64,000 nt of DNA, taken from the NCBI GenBank assembly GCA_014161675.1, contig GCA_014161675.1_4760.1. One strand, given 5' to 3'. The notes beneath the pieces are model-generated. The model saw only the letters and a program-made list of their open reading frames with translations, made no database searches and was not told the origin of the DNA. Positions 52,722 to 62,429 of this stretch are shown here, one piece after another. The position numbers and the translations under genes were made by a program. Position 1 is the first letter of the stretch. Every line of letters starts with the position of its first letter. Source of the DNA: a phage.

Positions 52722-54773
52722 TTACATTTTAAATTTATCTGGCATTGCGTCTACAGATACCAGATCAGCGATAAGCTGACGTAGAGTTGCCTTATCTGCT
52801 TTCTTACGTTCGGTTTTAGCTTCGCTAATGAAGCTGGAGAAAGACAGGTCAGAAGCAGGTTTAATAACACCTTCACGGATGAATGCATCACCGTCCGCGA
52901 TCATCTCGCCAGATTCTTGTAATGCTGCCAGTTCATTTTTGTTCATAATATGTGCCTCAATGTAATAAGTTTCTTGTGAATCCGTCGATGCCGTAGCACG
53001 AGTTACCGTATCAAAGGATAACACAACACCGCGAGGAAGTAAAATCTCGCATTCTTTGTAAGCAAATGCTTTGTTACCTACTGGCAATACAGGGATGTTT
53101 TCCGCGCCAGCAATGGAGAAAGCAACATTAGCGCCACCTTCACCGCGAGAGCCAGCCATAGAGTCAACACCAGCAACGGCACTAGCCACGTTTGCATTCC
53201 AGCCGCCAAAAATGTTAGGTGCAAGGGAAGTGCTCACATAGTTTTTAAAGTAAAACGCTTTTTGCTTACGTGCAGTTTCCCACATTTGCGACCGGAAGTC
53301 CATACCACGATACAGAATAGTACCCGGATCAAGTTTAACGCCATAGTTGGAGAAGGCATTATCCAGTGCATCGCACATCTTGACCAATTCTTCTGGATCT
53401 GCGATGCCTTCAAACTCTTCCAGCTTACGGTCGGTTAGGAAGTTGTTCATATTGATGTATGCTGCATCGGCATATTCGCTCAACACAAAACCTTCCGCGC
53501 CTGGCAGATCAAGATCAATATCTGCCATCATTTCACCCATGTTGCTAGCAATTGCTTCAAACATACCGGAGGCAACATTACGTAGGGCATCGGTTTTAAT
53601 CTGGGTGATATGACTACGCAGCATTTCAGCTTTTACATCTGCTGGCATAGACTGGTCTACTCGATCCATTGCCAGGGCGGTGATCTTGTTTTCGAATACT
53701 TCCTCGCTCATGATTTCTTTTAAGCGTTTGACCGAGGCTGCGATAACTTCCGCAGACAATGGATCATATTGATCCTGAACTTTTACCAGTTCGCTTACTG
53801 CGTATTTTGCATCGGCTTCGCTTTCAAAAATAGTACGCATGAAACCATAGCGAGTGATAATATCACTTGTCCAGTCATTCAGAGAACGAGCGGTTGAACG
53901 TTCTAAGGCTTGACGGTCAATCAGAGTATTAAACTGTTTCTTAGGTTCTGCTTCGGTGATATCTTCTTCCGGTTTAAGATTAATTTTTTCTGGATGATTC
54001 ACATAGTCGCTGTTATAGGTCGCTTGAGTTTTCAGCATTTCTTCTTTAGTCAAACGAGATTTAGCCGCTACGCGTTGTTCTGCTTCCGCGTTTCGTTCTT
54101 CTTCTGACACAAGACTAGCCGCATATGCCTCATCTTTAGTCAGAGATTCACCAGTAGCCTTAGATACCCAGCGATCACCTAAATCACTTTCTACTTTAGT
54201 GAACAAGGATTCATCAAGTTTAATCCCTTTAATCTTATCAATCGCCATCCCGCGACGCTTGACAACAACTAAAGCGATCTTTTTGCTGGTCATTACTTCC
54301 TGCTGGAATACTTCAAACTTCGGTGTACGACGCACCAAACGCTCTATAACGCGCTTAACCAGTTCGGTCTTACCTTTCATGCGGGATACGTTAAAACGGA
54401 ACATAACAGCGTCTAATTGCGCTTTACGGGCTGTTTCCATAACCACATCAAAAGCACTTGACATAACTGCAATCGGGTTATCGCCTAGACCATTTTTAAG
54501 CTGTACAATACGACCGCTTTTGTTCATTTCGCACAGTACAACATGTGCGGTCTTGTCACCCATACGAATGATTTTAGGTGTTTTGTTGGTGAAGTTACAA
54601 AGACGGACAATCACATCTTTATCGCGTGTCTGTACTGCAAAAAGCTGTTTAGGATTCTGCTTAGGCTTTAAGCACTGTACCGGAGCAATCCTGCCAAAGT
54701 TTTCTTCCTCTTCCGTCAACAGCCATTTCTCGAAAGATTCAATCATTAGATCGTCGATTTCTAAGTTAAACAT
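52722..54773 (-). CDS. alt: ADP-ribosyltransferase Alt (packaged RNAP-modifying enzyme)
   Basis: 683 aa (T4 Alt 682 aa); catalytic LYRGMDF, YVSTSLAP, ECEILLPRG motifs; position next to gene 54. Confidence 0.8.
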   Translation of the reverse strand: MFNLEIDDLMIESFEKWLLTEEEENFGRIAPVQCLKPKQNPKQLFAVQTRDKDVIVRLCNFTNKTPKIIRMGDKTAHVVLCEMNKSGRIVQLKNGLGDNPIAVMSSAFDVVMETARKAQLDAVMFRFNVSRMKGKTELVKRVIERLVRRTPKFEVFQQEVMTSKKIALVVVKRRGMAIDKIKGIKLDESLFTKVESDLGDRWVSKATGESLTKDEAYAASLVSEEERNAEAEQRVAAKSRLTKEEMLKTQATYNSDYVNHPEKINLKPEEDITEAEPKKQFNTLIDRQALERSTARSLNDWTSDIITRYGFMRTIFESEADAKYAVSELVKVQDQYDPLSAEVIAASVKRLKEIMSEEVFENKITALAMDRVDQSMPADVKAEMLRSHITQIKTDALRNVASGMFEAIASNMGEMMADIDLDLPGAEGFVLSEYADAAYINMNNFLTDRKLEEFEGIADPEELVKMCDALDNAFSNYGVKLDPGTILYRGMDFRSQMWETARKQKAFYFKNYVSTSLAPNIFGGWNANVASAVAGVDSMAGSRGEGGANVAFSIAGAENIPVLPVGNKAFAYKECEILLPRGVVLSFDTVTRATASTDSQETYYIEAHIMNKNELAALQESGEMIADGDAFIREGVIKPASDLSFSSFISEAKTERKKADKATLRQLIADLVSVDAMPDKFKM

Positions 54774-54812
54774 TTTATATCCTCTAGTTGATAACCTATA
54801 AACCTATATTTA

Positions 54813-54838
54813 TGAAAAAGGGGCTTAACGCCCCCCCC
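54813..54838 (-). terminator. Rho-independent terminator (minus strand) after ORF 54844..55056
   Basis: Minus-strand GGGGCG-uuaag-CCCC followed by UUUUUC; same module as 20918 (+) and 58840 (-). Confidence 0.6.
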
Positions 54839-54843
54839 ATTTA

Positions 54844-55056
54844 TTATAATGCACCATCGAGCAATTGCTCTAAGGTGTATCCTGAATAGTCTTTTTCAAT
54901 CAGGGTATATTTTCCTACTCGTTTAATCCAGCCACGCATTTCAACGTATTCTGCGTAGTTGATGGTGCGCGTTGTTCCATCTTCCAGTAATGCAGTACCG
55001 ATTTCGTTAATGCGGTCATAAGTTACGTCGGTAATGATGATTTCGATGTTAGCCAT
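54844..55056 (-). CDS. Hypothetical small protein
   Basis: 70 aa ORF with promoter cassette upstream. Confidence 0.5.
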   Translation of the reverse strand: MANIEIIITDVTYDRINEIGTALLEDGTTRTINYAEYVEMRGWIKRVGKYTLIEKDYSGYTLEQLLDGAL

Positions 55057-55092
55057 TTGATACTCCTTAGTAGTTCGTTTCGGTATGGGTGT

Positions 55093-55121
55093 ATTATGAT
55101 ATACACCATCTGTTATGTCAA
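55093..55121 (-). promoter_or_regulatory. Sigma70-type promoter cassette (minus strand)
   Basis: Minus-strand TTGACA-17-CATAAT, followed by ...CCGAAACGAACT..AGGAGTATCAAATG. Confidence 0.6.
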
Positions 55122-55127
55122 CAACTT

Positions 55128-55307
55128 TTAGAACATTTTTGAAATTAATTCTGCTTTGATTTCGCAGAGAACATCTAAAGATTTCTCGTCACCCGCTTTT
55201 GCTGCTTCTGCTTGCATTTTTGAAATGGCTTCAATGTCAGTGCAATTATAAGCCGCTTGAACTTTAGCGATTGCGATGATTGCCGATTCGATGGTTAAGT
55301 GTTTCAT
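55128..55307 (-). CDS. Hypothetical small protein (59 aa)
   Basis: ATG preceded by AGGAGAATCAAAC; below ORF-track cutoff. Confidence 0.45.
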   Translation of the reverse strand: MKHLTIESAIIAIAKVQAAYNCTDIEAISKMQAEAAKAGDEKSLDVLCEIKAELISKMF

Positions 55308-55339
55308 GTTTGATTCTCCTTTCGTTTCGGTATGTGTGT

Positions 55340-55368
55340 AGTATAGGGGATCACCGATCCCCTGTCAA
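55340..55368 (-). promoter_or_regulatory. Sigma70-type promoter cassette with palindromic spacer (minus strand)
   Basis: Minus-strand TTGACA-GGGGATCGGTGATCCCC-TATACT. Confidence 0.65.
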
Positions 55369-55376
55369 CAACTTTT

Positions 55377-55895
55377 TTAGTTATTTTTTAATTGCTCATC
55401 TTGCAATAGGGCAATCACATGCTGGCGATGTTCTTCCGATTGAGGCACACCGAAAAAGTTTGTTTTGTAGAAATACTCTAATCGGTCTTCTCGTGTGCTC
55501 TCTTCCATCATGATCGCGGGTAGTCCGAGATTTCGGAAACGTCGCTTTTCTGCTGGCGTAAAATCACTGTAATACAACATAGAATCATCATTACCAGCAA
55601 TGCTAAACTCATCCTTCATAAAGGAGAATATTGCGTTTAAACGCTGTTTACCGTCCACGATTTCGATCTCATAGCGAGAGCCATCATCAATCTTAGCCAT
55701 TGCGATAGCACCAACCGGAAAATCATTAATCAGGTTTTCGATAAACATACGTTTGTTTTCTGTGTCCCATACTAAAGGACGCTGATAATCTGGGTTCATG
55801 TTGATATAGCCATCTTCTAACCACGCCTCATAAACAGAGATTACAAAGTTTTTAGTATTGGTATAGTAACGGCGTTTAGGTGTTAAACGGTTCAT
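55377..55895 (-). CDS. DUF262/ParB-like (GmrSD N-terminal-type) domain protein
   Basis: DYQRPLVWD ... FPVGAIAM ... DGKQRL match the DUF262 signatures ((D/E)YQR..VW and DGQQR); start placed at MNRLTPKRR (RBS AGGAGA) rather than ORF-track start 55931. Confidence 0.55.
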   Translation of the reverse strand: MNRLTPKRRYYTNTKNFVISVYEAWLEDGYINMNPDYQRPLVWDTENKRMFIENLINDFPVGAIAMAKIDDGSRYEIEIVDGKQRLNAIFSFMKDEFSIAGNDDSMLYYSDFTPAEKRRFRNLGLPAIMMEESTREDRLEYFYKTNFFGVPQSEEHRQHVIALLQDEQLKNN

Positions 55896-55896
55896 G

Positions 55897-56229
55897 TTAT
55901 AGTCTCCTGAATGGATCATCACGTAAATCAATATCTTTTAAGAACTCATCCCATGAATGGCGGATATTGTTCTTAATTCTCCAGATAAGAGCAGGGATTG
56001 AACGCTCTCCCATCTGGAAGTATGGATCATATGATCCGTATGCCCAATATGCTACTACAATTCCACAATCAGCGCAATAGTATTCTATTTCACTTGCTGG
56101 CGACCAAAGTCCATCAATATGATCGGTGATCTTGCTTTCGATGTTATGGCTATGACAATCAGGGCAACGGATGCAATGACCTTGTTTATCGTAATTTGAC
56201 GTTAGCGAATACTTAAACAATCTCATCAT
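55897..56229 (-). CDS. Zinc-ribbon protein
   Basis: 110 aa with CIRCPDC ... CADC (two CxxC pairs); start overlaps upstream gene stop. Confidence 0.5.
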   Translation of the reverse strand: MMRLFKYSLTSNYDKQGHCIRCPDCHSHNIESKITDHIDGLWSPASEIEYYCADCGIVVAYWAYGSYDPYFQMGERSIPALIWRIKNNIRHSWDEFLKDIDLRDDPFRRL

Positions 56230-56942
56230 AGATCCTTATTTGCTTCAAATACTGCCTTTGCGAATCCTCGCGGGGTAAGTGACCTGATAGTCTTTGTTTT
56301 CGTTCCTTTCCCGCCTAGCTTAGAATGCTGTTTACTGTACCCTTTATTAATCTGCAACGGTTTCTTTTCTGGCATTATAAAGCCTTGTCCGGTCCATAAG
56401 CAAGTCTTTTTCGGGTACATATCACGGGCGGCGATATACTCAGGAAAAGTAGGATGTTTATCATCTTCCGGCAAATAACCGCCATATTCCCACGGGTGGA
56501 ACATGTAATCAGGCTTACGCCACATGCTAGAGATAACGCTTACAGGATTCTCTATCATGTAGGGAACTCCTAGCCATTCACCCAAATAAGCGGTTATTTT
56601 AGCTGCCCTTACATCATGAACTTGAATCAATGGTCCTTGTTCTCGTTTCTTTCGTTCAAAGTGTGCAGCGCCACTAACAGCTAAATTGGTGCACGGTGGG
56701 AATGCAAAGATAATATCCGGTTTCCCCCATTCAAGGTCCATTGCTCTTTCCAGCCAATTCAAATCAATCCAGGTGTTTACATAGGTAATGTTTGGATGTT
56801 CAAATCTGGTATTATACTTTTTGTATGTGCCGTGGTCGCCATCATCAGCATTAAAGCAGATCACCTTATGACCTGCTTTAGCCCATTCTAGCCCCATTAT
56901 CCCCGATCCGTCAAAGTTACAGAATATTAATTTTTGTTTCAT
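56226..56942 (-). CDS. Compact C5-cytosine methyltransferase-like protein
   Basis: Motif I-like FCNFDGSGIMG, motif IV-like FPPC(T), motif VI-like MIENP, C-terminal RSLTPRGFAKA resembling motif IX; only 238 aa with almost no target-recognition region. Confidence 0.5.
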   Translation of the reverse strand: MKQKLIFCNFDGSGIMGLEWAKAGHKVICFNADDGDHGTYKKYNTRFEHPNITYVNTWIDLNWLERAMDLEWGKPDIIFAFPPCTNLAVSGAAHFERKKREQGPLIQVHDVRAAKITAYLGEWLGVPYMIENPVSVISSMWRKPDYMFHPWEYGGYLPEDDKHPTFPEYIAARDMYPKKTCLWTGQGFIMPEKKPLQINKGYSKQHSKLGGKGTKTKTIRSLTPRGFAKAVFEANKDL

Positions 56943-57184
56943 ATACGCCCCTTTAATCCAACACAGATTTTAGAAGGTTCTTTGCCGTGCCACATTAAGT
57001 AAAGTCCGTTAATGCGGCCTTGTTTTGTATATGATTCTTTTCTGATCTTCTTATAGTGTCGTGTTTCCTCAACTGATTGTTTAGAATACCAATCATAAAG
57101 GAAGAGGCACAAAGGCCAACCATTAGCGGCCTTAATGCAGTTATTAAGAAATTCCTTATTGCGTTTAATTAATTTTCTTTTCAC
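56939..57184 (-). CDS. Hypothetical small basic protein
   Basis: 81 aa, start/stop overlap with neighbours (operon). Confidence 0.45.
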   Translation of the reverse strand: MKRKLIKRNKEFLNNCIKAANGWPLCLFLYDWYSKQSVEETRHYKKIRKESYTKQGRINGLYLMWHGKEPSKICVGLKGRI

Positions 57185-57432
57185 GCTGCCCCCATTGGTT
57201 TGATAGTAACAGAATCTAAAAGACCTTTGTTAGCCAGTTCGCGGCAAGTTTTCAGATCCGCAACTTCCCAGCCAGCCGCAATCAGGTTATCAATCAGGCT
57301 GTTAGCAACTTCTTCGCTCATGAAAGAGCACTGTTTGCCGATGGTGTAGCGTACACGCTGTAATTTCAGTTTACGGAAGCCTTTAACGTTCAGGTCTTTA
57401 GCGATTTTCTTTGCGGTTTCGATGTTAGCCAT
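57181..57432 (-). CDS. Hypothetical small protein (first gene of 5-gene operon)
   Basis: 83 aa, promoter cassette immediately upstream. Confidence 0.5.
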   Translation of the reverse strand: MANIETAKKIAKDLNVKGFRKLKLQRVRYTIGKQCSFMSEEVANSLIDNLIAAGWEVADLKTCRELANKGLLDSVTIKPMGAA

Positions 57433-57472
57433 TGTTTGATTCTCCTAAGTGGTATCTCGTCTTGATGGTTGT

Positions 57473-57501
57473 ATTGTAGGGGAGTTATCCTCCCCTGTCA
57501 A
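57473..57501 (-). promoter_or_regulatory. Sigma70-type promoter cassette with palindromic spacer (minus strand)
   Basis: Minus-strand TTGACA-GGGGAGGATAACTCCCC-TACAAT then AGGAGAATCAAACAATG. Confidence 0.6.
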
Positions 57502-57515
57502 CACTTTTTATAAAA

Positions 57516-57683
57516 TTATTTGTTAATTTCTGGTGCGTTGCTAGGATAGTAACCTTCTTTAACTCCGAGGTATTTCGCAACCATCCCTACAATCTTCTGT
57601 GCTACTACAATGTCAAATTTCAGATAATCTTCGCCGTGGGTTTCAATGATATATGCTTCACATGCTGCTTTAGTCTCGAACAT
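57516..57683 (-). CDS. Hypothetical small protein (55 aa), paralog of 60774..60941
   Basis: MFETKAACEAYIIETHGEDYLKFDIVVAQKIVGMVAKYLGVKEGYYPSNAPEINK; ~85% DNA identity to the second copy. Confidence 0.5.
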   Translation of the reverse strand: MFETKAACEAYIIETHGEDYLKFDIVVAQKIVGMVAKYLGVKEGYYPSNAPEINK

Positions 57684-57716
57684 TTTGATTCTCCTATTTC
57701 GTTTCGGTATGTGTGT

Positions 57717-57745
57717 ATTATAGGGGATCTCCTGATCCCCGTCAA
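57717..57745 (-). promoter_or_regulatory. Sigma70-type promoter cassette (minus strand)
   Basis: Minus-strand TTGACG-17-TATAAT with palindromic GGGGATC...GATCCCC spacer. Confidence 0.6.
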
Positions 57746-57759
57746 CAACTTTTTTAAAA

Positions 57760-58041
57760 TTATTCGTGATTAGTTTCGATGTTGTGCATTTTGCACCAGT
57801 TCAGCCAATCACCCAGATCCTGATAGCTAATGCTTTTATCTGCTGCCATCGTTTTTGTCTTGATACCCATATGTGCGTTATGAGTAAGCATTTTTACAGT
57901 GAACTCAATTTTATCACCTTTAGCTTTAACATCAACCAGTTTGGTCCACTGGCTACCAGCGCCGCGAATGTTCATACCAACGATGTTTCCGATGTATGCT
58001 TCTTTGTTTTTCAGGATTTCGGTTGCTTTGATGAATTTCAT
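57760..58041 (-). CDS. Hypothetical small protein
   Basis: 93 aa ORF with own promoter cassette. Confidence 0.5.
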   Translation of the reverse strand: MKFIKATEILKNKEAYIGNIVGMNIRGAGSQWTKLVDVKAKGDKIEFTVKMLTHNAHMGIKTKTMAADKSISYQDLGDWLNWCKMHNIETNHE

Positions 58042-58074
58042 TTTTGATTCTCCAGTTCGTTTCGGTATGTGTGT

Positions 58075-58103
58075 ATTATGCTATGTTCTTACTTTGGTGT
58101 CAA
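58075..58103 (-). promoter_or_regulatory. Sigma70-type promoter cassette (minus strand)
   Basis: Minus-strand TTGACA-17-CATAAT. Confidence 0.55.
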
Positions 58104-58111
58104 CAACTTTT

Positions 58112-58381
58112 TTAGATATTTTCAGAAATAAATTTTAAAACTTGACGTAAATGTTTCTCATCTTTGATGGTAGCCGGAAGTTCTTCTTTTACTTCCTGTG
58201 CAAGATAGATATTTCCGTTCCAAGTGAAAGATCCGTCTTCGTTTACGCGATAGCTGAACATCCACTCGCAATCATTTTCGATTTCATATACACACAGAAG
58301 GGTGTAATCGTTAAAGCTATTGATTTCAAGGTCGAAGCCGTGACGTTTTGCAAAGTTGGTAGTGGTTTTAGTCAGTGTCAT
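58112..58381 (-). CDS. Hypothetical small protein
   Basis: 89 aa ORF with own promoter cassette. Confidence 0.5.
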   Translation of the reverse strand: MTLTKTTTNFAKRHGFDLEINSFNDYTLLCVYEIENDCEWMFSYRVNEDGSFTWNGNIYLAQEVKEELPATIKDEKHLRQVLKFISENI

Positions 58382-58421
58382 TGTTTGATTCTCCTAAGTG
58401 GTATCTCGTTTCGATGTGTGT

Positions 58422-58450
58422 ATTATGCTATAGGCCGGATCTGGTGTCAA
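58422..58450 (-). promoter_or_regulatory. Sigma70-type promoter cassette (minus strand)
   Basis: Minus-strand TTGACA-17-CATAAT. Confidence 0.55.
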
Positions 58451-58467
58451 CAACTTTTTTAAAAATT

Positions 58468-58492
58468 TGGGCAATAAAAAGCCGACACTAAG
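58468..58492 (-). terminator. Rho-independent terminator (minus strand) after ORF 58507..58815
   Basis: Minus-strand AGCCGACC-uuag-UGUCGGCU followed by UUUUAUUG. Confidence 0.55.
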
Positions 58493-58506
58493 GTCGGCTA
58501 ATAAAA

Positions 58507-58815
58507 TCATTTAGACAAATAATCATTCTGTGCAATCCGGTCAGCATGTTCCGGCGTTACGTCAATCGCAATCACTTTAACGCGTGCTTTCTTGCGACCT
58601 GGGTTTTCTCGTAACCAGTGCTCATGACCGTGAACATTTTTATACTGCGATGCTTCTTCGAAGGTACGGATCGGACCTGGGTAATCAGCGTAAAGGATCT
58701 CTAGATCTTCGGTGATGTAAAAATATACATCGTAATTGCTGTTCTCTAGCTTAAGCAGAGACTTTCGGAACATTGGGAGATTTTCGCGGGTAAATTCAAA
58801 GATATTATCTTTCAT
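58507..58815 (-). CDS. HxHW-family small protein, paralog A1
   Basis: 102 aa; YFYITEDLEI ... HGHEHW ... VIAIDV shared with five paralogs. Confidence 0.55.
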   Translation of the reverse strand: MKDNIFEFTRENLPMFRKSLLKLENSNYDVYFYITEDLEILYADYPGPIRTFEEASQYKNVHGHEHWLRENPGRKKARVKVIAIDVTPEHADRIAQNDYLSK

Positions 58816-58839
58816 AGTATTATCCTCAATAGTTGGATG

Positions 58840-58860
58840 AAAAGGGGGCTTAACGCCCCC
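58840..58860 (-). terminator. Rho-independent terminator (minus strand) after ORF 58866..59153
   Basis: Minus-strand GGGGGCG-uuaag-CCCCC followed by UUUUCA. Confidence 0.55.
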
Positions 58861-58865
58861 ATATA

Positions 58866-59153
58866 TTAAAACAGCCCTTCCTGTACACCGTAGTAGAGTT
58901 CGTCACTGATAATTTCATTAATGCGACGGTGTGCATATTCCTGATTTGCGAAGTTGTCAGCAAGTTCTACTTTAGTTTCGCCGTCATGAGTCCATTTAGT
59001 GATAACTTTACCATCTGCAAATTTGAAGTTGAACTCTTTAGCTACTGCATCGCGTACCAGACGTGCGAACTTGTTGTTACGGATTGCATTGTCTGTTTCG
59101 TTTGCAGCGTGAGCAAATTTGTTAACTTTCAGAGTGATAGTAATGTATGCCAT
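58866..59153 (-). CDS. Hypothetical small protein
   Basis: 95 aa ORF with own promoter cassette. Confidence 0.5.
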   Translation of the reverse strand: MAYITITLKVNKFAHAANETDNAIRNNKFARLVRDAVAKEFNFKFADGKVITKWTHDGETKVELADNFANQEYAHRRINEIISDELYYGVQEGLF

Positions 59154-59199
59154 AATTTGATTCTCCTAGTTAGAAAGTGTATATCGTTTCGATGGGGAT

Positions 59200-59228
59200 A
59201 TTATGCTATATCCCCGATCCGGTGTCAA
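59200..59228 (-). promoter_or_regulatory. Sigma70-type promoter cassette (minus strand)
   Basis: Minus-strand TTGACA-17-CATAAT with CCGGATCGGGGA...TCCCC palindromic spacer. Confidence 0.55.
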
Positions 59229-59234
59229 CACTTT

Positions 59235-59528
59235 TTATAAAATAATTTTTTGATATTTTTCTATGATGTTCGTGTAAGTCACATCAACCGCTAGCACCGT
59301 TGCTTCGAATCCACCGTTTAGCCAATGGCTATGATCATGATCGTGAAAGAAACCTAGACCAGTACGAAGACCTTCTTTATATTCTGCGCGTACATTCAGT
59401 TTGTCGTCGATAAACAGATAAAACCATGAATTTTTACTAGGATTGATGATACAACCTTTCAGATTAGGGAGAATATCACGACTAAGAATAAACTTATCAC
59501 CTACTTTGAACATAATATTAGTCCTCAC
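59235..59528 (-). CDS. HxHW-family small protein, paralog A2
   Basis: FYLFIDDKLNV ... HDHDHSHW ... VLAVDV. Confidence 0.55.
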   Translation of the reverse strand: MRTNIMFKVGDKFILSRDILPNLKGCIINPSKNSWFYLFIDDKLNVRAEYKEGLRTGLGFFHDHDHSHWLNGGFEATVLAVDVTYTNIIEKYQKIIL

Positions 59529-59838
59529 TTATAAGGTCAAACCAATTGTTTTTCGCATAATGCTTAATGCGTGCTTGATCTGCTTCCGCTGGTGATAGAT
59601 TCCATGCAACCACTACAACTTCTGACGCATCGTCATCCGTTTCTGATACCCAATGATTGTGATTCATACAGTTATTTGCTATCGAGTGAGCAAATGATTT
59701 CATCACTGGAGACGTATAATCATAGTAACGGATTTTCAGATTTTCATCAACGTACAAATAGATCGTATAAGGTTTATATTCAGTAACCAGTAACAGACAG
59801 TTACGCAATTCTGGGAAAATATTTTTAGTTAATTTCAT
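59518..59838 (-). CDS. HxHW-family small protein, paralog A3
   Basis: IYLYVDENLKI ... NHNHW ... VVVVAWNL. Confidence 0.5.
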   Translation of the reverse strand: MKLTKNIFPELRNCLLLVTEYKPYTIYLYVDENLKIRYYDYTSPVMKSFAHSIANNCMNHNHWVSETDDDASEVVVVAWNLSPAEADQARIKHYAKNNWFDLISED

Positions 59839-60052
59839 ATTCTAGTTCTCCGTAATACACGGTAATCCATTTTTCTTCATACTTTGTATCTTTCCAACAC
59901 ACAATCCCGTTTACTGTGCAATCTTTGGAATTGACGAATGATTCATATTGTTCTGCATCTTCCATCATTGCATGAGCGGTCTTTTCATCGAATATATCGC
60001 AGATCGCTTTATATGCTCGATAATCTTTAAATTTGCTCATAATTAAGACCAC
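59825..60052 (-). CDS. Hypothetical small protein, paralog B1
   Basis: MSKFKDYRAYKAI...MMEDAEQ...GIVCWK shared with B2. Confidence 0.5.
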   Translation of the reverse strand: MVLIMSKFKDYRAYKAICDIFDEKTAHAMMEDAEQYESFVNSKDCTVNGIVCWKDTKYEEKWITVYYGELEYEIN

Positions 60053-60258
60053 TCAAGAGTTTTTGAAAACACATCTATCCATTGTTGAGTATATGCGGTT
60101 TCTTTCCATGATACAATACCAGTCGAATAATGGTTTTTGTTTCCAGAAAAGGACGGGCATTTTGAGGCATCTTCCATCATCTTTTCGGCGAACTCTGGTG
60201 CGTATACTCGCAGGATCTGTTGATATGCTTTGTATTCTTTAAATTTGCTCATAATCAT
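60043..60258 (-). CDS. Hypothetical small protein, paralog B2 (tandem duplicate of B1)
   Basis: MSKFKEYKAYQQI...MMEDASK...GIVSWK. Confidence 0.5.
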   Translation of the reverse strand: MIMSKFKEYKAYQQILRVYAPEFAEKMMEDASKCPSFSGNKNHYSTGIVSWKETAYTQQWIDVFSKTLEWS

Positions 60259-60517
60259 TCACTACCTTATCAGCTTCTTTTGTTGTTTTTACATCAACTG
60301 CGATAACTCGTAAAGGTTCGTCATGGTTCCACCAGTGGTCATGAATATCAGCTTGTGATTTATCACCAAAGGAATCACGAATATCATTTTTACATTTATA
60401 GCTAATGTGACCTTCATAGTCAACATAAAGGTAATTATCGAAAATCGGCGTTTTTAAGATCATACCGAAAAATCTTTCTTTGTGTGTCTTATCCAGCGTT
60501 GCAGTAATTCGCATCAT
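60239..60517 (-). CDS. HxHW-family small protein, paralog A4
   Basis: YLYVDYEGHI ... IHDHW ... VIAVDV. Confidence 0.55.
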   Translation of the reverse strand: MMRITATLDKTHKERFFGMILKTPIFDNYLYVDYEGHISYKCKNDIRDSFGDKSQADIHDHWWNHDEPLRVIAVDVKTTKEADKVVNDYEQI

Positions 60518-60529
60518 AATATATTCCTC

Positions 60530-60709
60530 TTAGAAAGGGATGGTCATTTCTTGAGCTTGTACGTTCTCGTTAGGATTAAACTTCATCCAGCCGATATTGT
60601 CTACCAGCATATGCACATTTTTATCATATCCTACGTGGGTAGTCAATACTGTATGTGCTTTACCTTCAATGATGAGTTCCATGTACTTCTGAACTTCGAT
60701 AGCTTTCAT
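60530..60709 (-). CDS. Hypothetical small protein (59 aa)
   Basis: ATG preceded by AGGAGAATCAAA and a promoter cassette; below ORF-track cutoff. Confidence 0.4.
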   Translation of the reverse strand: MKAIEVQKYMELIIEGKAHTVLTTHVGYDKNVHMLVDNIGWMKFNPNENVQAQEMTIPF

Positions 60710-60741
60710 TTTGATTCTCCGTTTGTTGTCTTGATGGGAGT

Positions 60742-60770
60742 ATCTTACTACTCCCTTTAATCATTGTCAA
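60742..60770 (-). promoter_or_regulatory. Sigma70-type promoter cassette (weaker -10)
   Basis: Minus-strand TTGACA-17-TAAGAT with GGGAG...CTCCC palindromic spacer. Confidence 0.45.
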
Positions 60771-60773
60771 CTA

Positions 60774-60941
60774 TTATTTGTTAATTTCTGGTGCGTTGCT
60801 CGGATAGTAACCTTCTTTAACACCCAGATATTTTGCGACCATTCCGGTGATCTTCTGTGCTACTACGATATCGAATTTCAGGTAATCTTCACCGTGGTTT
60901 GCTACAATGTATGCTTCGCATTCTGCTTTAGTCTGGAACAT
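60774..60941 (-). CDS. Hypothetical small protein (55 aa), paralog of 57516..57683
   Basis: MFQTKAECEAYIVANHGEDYLKFDIVVAQKITGMVAKYLGVKEGYYPSNAPEINK; start taken at internal Met supported by RBS and by the paralog. Confidence 0.5.
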   Translation of the reverse strand: MFQTKAECEAYIVANHGEDYLKFDIVVAQKITGMVAKYLGVKEGYYPSNAPEINK

Positions 60942-60974
60942 TTTTATTCTCCCATATCTCGTTGGTATGTGTGC

Positions 60975-61003
60975 ATTATAGGGGATCACCGATCCCCTGT
61001 CAA
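60975..61003 (-). promoter_or_regulatory. Sigma70-type promoter cassette with palindromic spacer
   Basis: Minus-strand TTGACA-GGGGATCGGTGATCCCC-TATAAT. Confidence 0.65.
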
Positions 61004-61008
61004 CAACT

Positions 61009-61302
61009 TTATAATGCTTTATATGCGTATTTCATAAATTTGTCTGCCACTTCATTGGCATGTTCAGATTCTACGCCTGATTCGAGAACAATAGCTAGGT
61101 CGGTTTCGTCATTCCCGCCGTACCAATGATTTGATGTTCGATTTTTTTCAATTGGAAATTGGTCACTTTTATCTGTGCGACAAAATACATCTAAATGCTC
61201 GTCGATGTAAAAGATCCAATCTTCATAAAGAATAACGGTATTAGCCAGATTTTTATTGCCTTCAACGAAAGGTTCGGCTACAAACAAATTAGTATGTTCC
61301 AT
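61009..61302 (-). CDS. HxHW-family small protein, paralog A5 (divergent)
   Basis: WIFYIDEHLDV ... SNHW ... AIVLES. Confidence 0.45.
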   Translation of the reverse strand: MEHTNLFVAEPFVEGNKNLANTVILYEDWIFYIDEHLDVFCRTDKSDQFPIEKNRTSNHWYGGNDETDLAIVLESGVESEHANEVADKFMKYAYKAL

Positions 61303-61359
61303 AGTATTTTCCTCAATTTGTGGGAGAGTATTGCCCCTCCCGATGTCTGTTATATTACA

Positions 61360-61680
61360 TTACACAAAATGGCGTTTCAATGCTTCTTTTGCGGTTCCGC
61401 TAAGACTTTCGATCTCGCCTGGCATAACATCAACTGCCAGAACTTCTACAACATCCTCTGACCCCAACCAGTGAGTATGACCTTTGTAGAACTTGATAAC
61501 CAGACTACCTTCCTCATCCCATTTAACGCTATCGCTAGCCCACCACACATCACCGTCGATAAAGTTGATGTAAAGCACACTACGCCACATTGAATTAATT
61601 ACTTTCAATACTGCGCCTTTCATATCTTCCACGGTGTGGTCTTCCATTTTGAAGACCTCGCCTACCTGAACTTTTGCCAT
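61360..61680 (-). CDS. HxHW-family small protein, paralog A6
   Basis: LYINFIDGDV ... GHTHW ... VLAVDV. Confidence 0.55.
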   Translation of the reverse strand: MAKVQVGEVFKMEDHTVEDMKGAVLKVINSMWRSVLYINFIDGDVWWASDSVKWDEEGSLVIKFYKGHTHWLGSEDVVEVLAVDVMPGEIESLSGTAKEALKRHFV

Positions 61681-61697
61681 TTAGTCACCTCTCTTTA

Positions 61698-61877
61698 TTA
61701 CATAACAATCACGCCAGCCGTTGAAAGTTGATGTTTCAACTGAGCATTTTCTGCTACTGTCAAATCAATGATTTCTTGTGACGCTGCAATCATATAGCCA
61801 TTGGTGATATTGTTTTGCATCAGTTCAATGGTTTCTTCGTTGTAGCGGATTTTAGCGATGATTTCGTTGAAGTTCAT
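61698..61877 (-). CDS. Hypothetical small protein (59 aa)
   Basis: ATG preceded by AGGAGAATCAAAC and promoter cassette; below ORF-track cutoff. Confidence 0.4.
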   Translation of the reverse strand: MNFNEIIAKIRYNEETIELMQNNITNGYMIAASQEIIDLTVAENAQLKHQLSTAGVIVM

Positions 61878-61911
61878 GTTTGATTCTCCTAGTTCGTTTC
61901 GGTATGTGTGT

Positions 61912-61940
61912 AGTATAGGGGATCACCGATCCCCTGTCAA
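61912..61940 (-). promoter_or_regulatory. Sigma70-type promoter cassette with palindromic spacer
   Basis: Minus-strand TTGACA-GGGGATCGGTGATCCCC-TATACT; identical to the cassette at 55340..55368. Confidence 0.65.
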
Positions 61941-61952
61941 CAACTTTTTGAA

Positions 61953-62429
61953 TTATTTTTCTTGATGCTCGCGATCGTACTTTTCGAAATAAAATTCTAC
62001 TGGCTGGTCGTGGATTGACAGCAAGCCAAAGCGTTTAGCCGCTCGCAATCCCATATTGCGCTGAATGTACTTCTGGAAGTTCTCGCGTATACACTTACGC
62101 CAGGATTCTAAGCCCATGCAGCTTTTATAAAGATTGCATTGCACACACGCCGGATTCATGTTATCAAGTATATCATGCTCCGGTTTATGCATTCCTACAA
62201 CCTTATACTTCCACGATCCATCATCATTACGGGCAATTCGTCCATTTTCATCATAGACTACCTTTGAGCGTCGCAATACTGGTTTGATGTGGTCTGCGTG
62301 CCAGCGATCCCCTAGTTCCTCGCCACAATAGGCACAACGTCCACCATATTTCATTTTCAGGATCTGGCGTTGATCTTTCTTTGACAATTTTTTAGGTTTA
62401 GGGGCTTTCGCCCCTTCATTATCACACAT
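61953..62429 (-). CDS. HNH endonuclease (free-standing, putative homing endonuclease)
   Basis: CAYCGEEL...WHADHIKPV...NMNPACVQCNLYK (Cys pairs flanking H-x-D-H and Asn); start overlaps the ligase stop. Confidence 0.7.
   Translation of the reverse strand: MCDNEGAKAPKPKKLSKKDQRQILKMKYGGRCAYCGEELGDRWHADHIKPVLRRSKVVYDENGRIARNDDGSWKYKVVGMHKPEHDILDNMNPACVQCNLYKSCMGLESWRKCIRENFQKYIQRNMGLRAAKRFGLLSIHDQPVEFYFEKYDREHQEK

Follow-up and report, generated by a model that had tools for sequence, protein, structure and literature searches.

The window analysed here, a 64,000-nucleotide (nt) stretch of phage DNA (contig GCA_014161675.1_4760.1 of GenBank assembly GCA_014161675.1), carries 23 small, tightly packed minus-strand genes between an HNH-endonuclease gene and alt. 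Interspersed with them, between alt and the HNH/ligase genes, are ten minus-strand cassettes of ~75 bp, which are very probably promoter-early stem-loops (PeSLs), elements of the hyperplastic regions of RB49/Phi1-type T4-like phages. We examined the minus strand from position 54500 to 62300. Megablast with the region as query matched 64 phage records, all from the RB49/Phi1/JSE group (genus Krischvirus, Straboviridae), at 94–98% identity; the closest, ELT4 and ELT3, matched at 97% across its full length. On this similarity we assign the window, at 95–98% identity to deposited genomes, to a Krischvirus genome of that group. Gene by gene, the region corresponds to open reading frames (ORFs) ORF185–ORF212 of Phi1 and ORF185c–ORF212c of RB49. 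Pfam gave no match for most of the cargo proteins, which the related records that we examined list as hypothetical.

The cassettes follow a shared plan (Table 1). An A/T-rich tract (for example, TAAAAAAGTTG) lies immediately 5' of the -35 box in all ten, and the stop codon of the preceding ORF falls inside or just before this tract. Downstream of the tract come, in order, (G)TTG-TTGACA, the 17-nt spacer, one of five -10 boxes (TATACT, TATAAT, CATAAT, TACAAT or TAAGAT), a leader rich in A and C, GGAGAATCAAA and the ATG. Agreement with the sigma-70 consensus reaches 11–12 of 12 positions in nine cassettes and 10 of 12 in the other, always with the 17-nt spacer, and every copy has the Shine–Dalgarno arrangement GGAGAATCAAA(N0-3)ATG or one close to it. 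A leader consensus quoted in an earlier note on this DNA held for about six copies; the rest use a variant leader, ATCGAAACGAGATACCACTT-AGGAGAATCAAACA-ATG. Three copies that the note had described as identical over about 30 nt (55340..55368, 60975..61003 and 61912..61940) share 34 nt, AAAGTTGTTGACAGGGGATCGGTGATCCCCTATA, and the copies at 61893-61960 and 55321-55388 are 97% identical over 68 nt. A repeat finder recovered nine of the ten cassettes as two overlapping families, D1 and D2, of 64–68 nt.

These counts, together with the ranking of sites in a neutral consensus promoter scan, establish that the cassettes are genuine and far beyond chance. The ten best sites of the scan in the region are exactly the ten cassettes, and nine are strong sites (11 or more of 12 positions, 17-nt spacer), compared with an average of 0.12 and at most 1 in first-order Markov simulations of the region, which rules out chance promoter-like matches. 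The entire window holds ten strong sites, nine of them inside this 7.1-kb region. An assembly or repeat artefact was also ruled out: orthologous sites are found in 16 independently sequenced relatives, except where the flanking segment is missing. A cassette stands directly upstream of 10 of the 23 genes, and hence not of most small genes as first proposed. Single promoters serve a run of six genes (ORF204–199), which cassette 3 heads, and one of five (ORF190–187), the latter headed by cassette 8 and made up of ORF190, ORF189.1, ORF189 (methyltransferase-like), ORF188 and ORF187 (GmrSD_N domain).

Table 1 Features of the region, and structural events in relatives, in window coordinates. The label PeSL denotes a very probable assignment; overlap is the homology overlap at the junction.
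Feature	Position	Strand	-35 start	Downstream ATG	Details
HNH-endonuclease gene	62429-61953	-			Pfam HNH
PeSL cassette 1, before ORF209 homologue	61878..61952	-	61940	61877	-35 61940-61935; spacer palindrome GGGGATCGGTGATCCCC; -10 TATACT 61917-61912
PeSL cassette 2, before ORF205 homologue	60942..61015	-	61003	60941	spacer palindrome; promoter 12/12 consensus
PeSL cassette 3 (degenerate), before ORF204	60710..60783	-	60770	60709	-35 TTGACA; -10 TAAGAT; hairpin GGGAGTA-GTAAGA-TACTCCC overlaps -10
PeSL cassette 4, before ORF198	59154..59240	-	59228	59153	hairpin GGGGATAT-AGCATA-ATATCCCC over -10
PeSL cassette 5, before ORF194	58382..58462	-	58450	58381	no promoter hairpin; canonical terminator just upstream
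PeSL-type cassette 6, before ORF193	58042..58115	-	58103	58041	no hairpin
PeSL cassette 7, before ORF191	57684..57757	-	57745	57683	spacer palindrome GGGGATC-AGGA-GATCCCC
PeSL cassette 8, before ORF190	57433..57513	-	57501	57432	spacer palindrome GGGGAG-GATAA-CTCCCC
PeSL cassette 9, before ORF186	55308..55380	-	55368	55307	spacer palindrome same as cassettes 1 and 2
PeSL cassette 10, before ORF185	55057..55133	-	55121	55056	AT-richer hairpin GGTGTAT-ATCATA-ATACACC over -10
alt	54773-52722	-
Canonical intrinsic terminator after ORF198	58844..58860	-			GGGGGC-GTTAA-GCCCCC then TTTT; annotated at orthologous GEC-3S site
Canonical intrinsic terminator after ORF197	58480..58499	-			just upstream of cassette 5; from scan, with orthologous GEC-3S annotation
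Terminator-like hairpin after ORF185, before alt	54815..54835	-			GGGGC-GTTAA-GCCCC then TTTTT; orthologous GEC-3S annotation
ORF207 deletion scar	61300..61316	-			17-bp microhomology; not cassette-mediated
ORF210 insertion/deletion	61862/61966				cassette by cassette; overlap 88-105 bp; cassette 1, in 7 relatives
ORF195/196 insertion/deletion	58403/58498				cassette by cassette; overlap 96 bp; cassette 5, in 5 relatives
RB49 ORF192 (ORFan192) insertion	57760/57764				cassette by cassette; overlap 5 bp; upstream edge of cassette 7
JSE 367-bp insertion	57759/57753				cassette by cassette; no overlap; upstream edge of cassette 7
ORF191 deletion (JK32, Brandy)	57684-57523				cassette by cassette; overlap 90 bp
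2.5-kb deletion (MIZ4)	57684-55140				cassette by cassette; overlap 85 bp
ORF186 deletion (five phages)	55309-55097 / 55309-55129				cassette by cassette; overlap 42 or 74 bp; cassette 9 end
ORF209-206 deletion (PTE-Eco09)	61862-61010				cassette by cassette; no overlap
ORF211+210 event					one cassette end
FL04 3.5-kb replacement					one cassette end
ORF207 insertion/deletion	61300/61316				cassette-free; 0-17 bp homology
ORF189.1 insertion/deletion					cassette-free; 0-17 bp homology
172-bp insertion	55892				cassette-free; 0-17 bp homology
265-bp insertion	61678				cassette-free; 0-17 bp homology
JSE replacement	60034-59270				cassette-free; 0-17 bp homology
HNH gene 3' end, homology break	61953-61969
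Cassette-type composite	52704-52676	-			between alt and next ADP-ribosyltransferase gene; TTGACT-N17-TATACT
ORF187	55895-55377				172 aa; GmrSD_N (DUF262)
ORF189	56942-56226
ORF205 / ORF191	60941-60774 / 57683-57516				paralogues
ORF202 / ORF201	60258-60043 / 60040-59825				paralogues
ORF208 / 203 / 200 / 199 / 197	61680-61360 / 60517-60239 / 59838-59518 / 59513-59235 / 58815-58507				five-member family

Hairpins accompany eight of the ten promoters, with predicted RNA folding free energies (dG) of -7.3 to -12.8 kcal/mol. In cassettes 1, 2, 7, 8 and 9 the hairpin lies within the spacer (stems of 7–8 bp, dG -11.7 to -12.8), with GGGGATC-GGT-GATCCCC in cassettes 1, 2 and 9; in cassettes 3, 4 and 10 it lies over the -10 box (stems of 7–8 bp, -7.3 to -10.9 kcal/mol). 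The GC-rich spacer palindrome expected in most copies is thus confined to half of them. Across the window and the loci of 16 relatives we found 22 distinct spacer-hairpin variants. Their loops range from 3 to 6 nt (GGT, ACC, ATC, GCC, ACA, GGGA, AGGA, TGGA, GATAA, GTTAAA, ACACC, CACGT and CACAT), whereas pairing is maintained in ten distinct stems by compensatory inner pairs (GGGGATC/GATCCCC, GGGGAG/CTCCCC and GGGGAT/ATCCCC) with occasional G-T wobbles, and the outer GGGG/CCCC is unchanged in all 22. Tolerance of G-T pairs leans towards a role of the hairpin at the RNA level.

This pattern of conservation bears on two other readings of the palindromes. They could be functionless, copies of one ancestral palindrome-containing promoter that spread by duplication and gene conversion. 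The identical spacer in three window copies and the 97% match between two of them mean that recent copying or conversion clearly occurs, and two cassettes function, by annotation, without a hairpin. Such copying does not explain why pairing is preserved across ten stems while loops diverge, why three cassettes carry different hairpins at another position, over the -10 box, or why unrelated phages have the same design with other stems; a published reporter assay, moreover, showed an effect of the stem-loop (PMC2839356). We regard lack of function as highly improbable. Alternatively, the palindrome could be a DNA operator, at which a dimeric phage or host protein bound to inverted GGGGATC half-sites would shut the early promoters off or recruit a recombinase. 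The invariant GGGG...CCCC suits this idea, as does a position at which bound protein would occlude RNA polymerase. Half-sites spaced anywhere between 3 and 6 nt apart speak against a fixed dimeric operator, and the compensated inner stem (ATC/GAT, AG/CT, AT/AT) also misfits a dimer site of fixed geometry; three cassettes have a different hairpin sequence shifted over the -10 box, two have none, and we identified no candidate regulator. We consider an operator unlikely.

The two commonest spacer variants, GGGGATC-GGT-GATCCCC and GGGGATC-ACC-GATCCCC, occur in 14 copies each in the window and the 16 relatives and are exact reverse complements of one another (compared at window 61934-61918, 60997-60981 and 55362-55346 with positions 1824-1896 of the Phi1 locus, L002, and with other relatives). 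This flip of the loop, seen at orthologous cassettes, points to a DNA hairpin across which an inversion or template switch took place, the product then spreading to other copies. It is what would be expected if the palindrome acted as a DNA hairpin or cruciform, throttling the promoter or offering a nick or resolution target that stimulates recombination. In engineered Escherichia coli promoters, an extruded spacer palindrome can switch the promoter off; stems of 7–8 bp with 3-nt loops are, however, short for cruciform extrusion at physiological superhelicity. The flip is also a single inferred event, G-T wobble variants (GGGGGTC/GATCCCC) are better tolerated in RNA than in DNA, and the crossover in the Phi1 mini-circle work lay outside the stem-loop (PMC2839356). 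A cruciform thus seems to us an improbable account of the palindromes. A role for GATC and Dam, considered because the stems contain two GATC sites, was dropped: GATC is common genome-wide (402 observed, 354 expected), and 10 of the 402 sites are in cassettes.

The cassettes have a published counterpart. PeSLs were found and named in Phi1 and RB49 by Arbiol, Comeau, Kutateladze, Adamia and Krisch (2010, Genome Biol Evol 2:140; PMC2839356), who defined them by a sigma-70 consensus, an AT-rich upstream region and a Shine–Dalgarno sequence with start codon at the 3' end, with a polyG/polyC stem-loop in one of five possible positions, most commonly between -35 and -10 or over -10. They counted ~50 PeSLs per genome, mostly in hyperplastic regions and preferentially upstream of ORFans. 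In their lacZ tests the stem-loop of PeSL211/210 lowered expression to roughly the extent that the rrnB T1 terminator did, and PeSL206/205 gave ~13,000 Miller units; their shuffling model, with ORF192 as its example, invokes PeSL-by-PeSL recombination, and mini-circles of ORFan192 and ORFan210 were demonstrated by inverse PCR (PMC2839356). Nolan et al. 2006 report that the predicted RB49 early-promoter consensus agrees with the 5'-end mapping of Desplats et al. 2002.

All of the elements named in those tests (211/210, 206/205, 192 and 210) lie inside the locus studied here. Each of the ten cassettes aligns to the intergenic element that Phi1 has at that gene boundary, with 66–118 identical positions over 76–132 nt; cassette 2 is the orthologue of Phi1 PeSL206/205 and cassette 7 that of PeSL193/192(191). 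The Phi1 orthologues bear the same spacer palindromes, and the spacer at the PeSL211/210 position, GGGGATCGGTGATCCCC, is identical to that of the three window copies. In the GEC-3S record a promoter with -35 and -10 signals is annotated at the orthologous position of every cassette, including the degenerate cassette 3. Promoter, AT tract, stem-loop (8 of 10), Shine–Dalgarno sequence with start codon, hyperplastic location, orthology and use as junctions were all found, and we put the probability that the cassettes are PeSLs at roughly 0.9. The earlier note had likewise proposed PeSL-type cassettes, in agreement with the Phi1/RB49 work, and had also suggested that a palindrome inside the spacer might be a distinct variant; the original description already contains this arrangement (PMC2839356). 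The finding is an ordinary one, at the locus where PeSLs were defined, because the same elements, with their role, have been published there in RB49/Phi1-type coliphages.

Gene gain and loss was compared in the loci of the 16 relatives (L001–L016). Collinear blastn high-scoring segment pairs (HSPs) were chained against the window, and the junctions were listed and curated to 15 unique events. Curation replaced an automatic classing (both HSP ends at most 15 bp from a cassette; 6 of 20), in which overlapping HSP ends overshoot and the same event was counted repeatedly. Eight events are cassette by cassette, two have one cassette end and five lie at gene boundaries without cassettes (Table 1). 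Against random positions the eight are enriched (P = 6e-4; cassettes with 15 bp either side make up 15% of the region). Homology overlaps of 42–105 bp, with both HSPs extending through the cassette, mark five of the eight, and the other three abut a cassette edge with overlaps of 0–5 bp; such long overlaps are, from the sequences, a clearer signature of cassette-mediated homologous exchange than junction counts. Cassette 1 is itself a chimera, with Phi1 PeSL212/210 in its 5' half and PeSL210/209 in its 3' half, which matches the scar predicted for excision of an ORFan210 mini-circle.

A different route removed ORF207 (192 nt). This gene is missing from the window. Of the 16 relatives, 14 have it at the corresponding junction, and FL04 and PTE-Eco09 lack the surrounding segment; the gene was lost between 17-bp repeats (GAGGAAAATACTATG...) situated around the start codon and its ribosome-binding site, away from cassettes. 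At least 59 Krischvirus genomes have the locus. At the 3' end of the HNH gene, homology ends 16 nt before the stop (query 1-461 of 477) in ~40% of 59 Krischvirus records, and in the relatives examined this early end coincides with an ORF211 directly downstream; the 3' end is therefore itself a recurrent junction.

Taken together with the work on Phi1 and RB49, these observations point to the following working of the cassettes. The near-consensus sigma-70 promoter and the A/C-rich leader with its strong Shine–Dalgarno sequence would let host RNA polymerase begin transcribing the accessory gene, or genes, that follow as soon as the phage has infected the cell. Whether it lies in the spacer or over the -10 box, the G4...C4 stem-loop is upstream of the cassette's own predicted transcription start and would be present only in RNA reading through from the previous unit. 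There it may act as a terminator, an attenuator or a 3'-end structure that insulates neighbouring units. Confinement to read-through RNA fits the published terminator/attenuator role. As the 70–100-bp cassettes are repeated in direct orientation, the phage, whose homologous recombination is efficient, could by exchange between copies delete, duplicate or insert the genes they flank, by way of mini-circles. Autonomous early expression and homology for recombination, both foreseen in the earlier note, agree with the published experiments (PMC2839356) and with our breakpoint mapping.

Several points weigh against this account. Cassettes 5 and 6 have no hairpin in the promoter. No spacer hairpin has a downstream T-tract and none was picked up by a stem-plus-T-tract scan of the coding strand, so we rejected them as canonical intrinsic terminators and any termination would be non-canonical; we retain a non-canonical terminator or attenuator on the strength of the published reporter assay, which for termination concerned one stem-loop in a plasmid context (PMC2839356). 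Start sites, termination and an RNA-level role of the hairpin are ones that we infer for this genome; for promoter strength, the effect as a terminator and mini-circles we rely on publications about the Phi1/RB49 orthologues. The junctions, finally, are not significantly enriched at cassettes relative to gene boundaries (8 of 15 against 10 of 23, P = 0.3; P = 0.06 with half events), the fairer null since viable events must fall at boundaries, for which 15 events are too few. About a third of the events (5 of 15) bypass the cassettes, with 0–17 bp of homology, and the cassettes thus provide a major but not the sole route of gene flux. With this caveat the published shuffling model is supported here.

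The region also contains three terminators outside the promoters (Table 1), of which the one before alt was read from the sequence, having been missed by the consensus terminator scan. A further cassette-type composite lies downstream of alt, where a hairpin, CGGGGACTAGT...ACTAGCCCCCG, overlaps the -10 box and is followed by TTTTC; it therefore resembles a canonical terminator for alt too.

Among the cargo genes, ORF187 encodes a protein made up of a GmrSD_N (DUF262) domain alone (Pfam E = 4e-20). Two genes upstream of it is ORF189, annotated as a DNA methyltransferase/Dcm in other records and without a Pfam match here, and the 110-amino-acid, zinc-ribbon-like ORF188 sits in between. The products of ORF205 and ORF191, each gene being cassette-flanked, are 89% identical, and their DNA forms a 238-nt repeat of 84%; the ORF202 and ORF201 products are 44% identical. 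ORF208, 203, 200, 199 and 197 form a family with the common motif H-x-HW...V(I/L)A(V/I)DV. Across the window GGCC is strongly depleted (31 observed, where trinucleotide frequencies predict 78), there is less AGCT and GTAC too (0.63 and 0.74) and GATC is not avoided, which may reflect restriction-site avoidance by a phage whose cytosine is unmodified.

Viral contigs were scanned for exact matches to the pattern TTGACA-GGGG(N9)CCCC-TATAMT, which gave 28 stretches, from Krischvirus contigs, several unrelated contigs and three jumbo contigs of ~360 kb. In enterobacterial jumbo phages of ~350–360 kb, which are not T4-like, consensus sigma-70 promoters have a GGGG...CCCC hairpin in the 17-nt spacer, over the -10 box or just downstream; such sites are at L026:1468 and 2200, L035:10168 (-), L028:632, L025:3983, and L045:5531 and 3969. 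Along a 0.6-kb segment one jumbo contig, L026, is ~80% identical to Salmonella phages 7t3 and Munch, and the cultured phage 7t3 (MK773491, unclassified Caudoviricetes) has one copy of the design at an intergenic site, L045:5531. Upstream of the jumbo-phage promoters, for example TTGACA TGGGGAGGAAACTCCCC TATAAT ACACACATCAAC, lies an AT-rich tract, and one of them has an ACACACAT leader similar to that of the Krischvirus cassettes. This lead, the sole one to reach past the literature consulted, is thin, with one or two such promoters in 12 kb. Megablast of L025, a viral contig of 174 kb that bears a cassette of the jumbo type, matched nothing in the phage collection, and the small unrelated viral contigs L017–L022 and L029 carry the spacer-hairpin design with other stems. 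These matches raise the tentative, and in our judgement somewhat doubtful, idea that the design is not confined to T4-like phages. If these promoters are functionally equivalent, the spacer stem-loop would be a general way to insulate dense early genes in large enterobacterial phages, perhaps arising by convergence or horizontal exchange, and cassettes could even mediate gene exchange between phage families. A literature search that was not thorough found no paper applying the PeSL concept to jumbo phages.

PeSLs allow large lytic phages to gain, lose and shuffle small accessory genes with the core genes undisturbed, a mechanism established for this phage group and locus in 2010 and 2014 (PMC2839356, PMC4122927). 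The cassettes are functionally important for the phage, and they are a textbook instance of an element already described. For annotation the analysis supplies ten early promoters, three terminators and the grouping of the 23 accessory genes into operons, and it raises no new question; what the window adds is a strain-level example, with a chimeric cassette lacking ORFan210 and a cassette-independent ORF207 deletion seen only here among the compared genomes.

The window cassettes share with the Phi1/RB49 PeSLs their genus, locus (ORF185–212, from alt to HNH and the gp30 ligase), anatomy, stem-loop positions, GGGGATC...GATCCCC stems, leader, Shine–Dalgarno sequence and role as recombination junctions, and by position they are orthologous to PeSL211/210, 206/205 and 193/192, which were tested by experiment. 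The differences are at strain level only: the window lacks ORF210 (leaving the chimeric cassette), ORF192 and ORF195/196, and has single-base differences in loops and -10 boxes. Comeau, Arbiol and Krisch (2014, Genome Biol Evol 6:1611; PMC4122927) extended the PeSL concept to T4/PST and KVP40/nt-1, in which, as at the T-even internal-protein locus, an early promoter with a stem-loop likewise flanks variable hyperplastic-region genes and is proposed to shuffle them. The stem-loops of T-evens lack polyG/polyC stems, are weaker and richer in AT, and were called analogues and not homologues (PMC2839356). The T4/PST and KVP40/nt-1 elements differ from ours in being built on the early-promoter consensus of those phages, whereas the window cassettes use a sigma-70 consensus and G4/C4 stems. 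There is also a likeness to integrons, where single small genes move as units through small circles and insert at repeated sites of an array. Integrons have a dedicated integrase and attC/attI sites, and their cassettes are usually promoterless; PeSL units differ in carrying their own promoter and in having no known dedicated recombinase. General homologous recombination is the mechanism presumed for PeSLs in their original description (PMC2839356).

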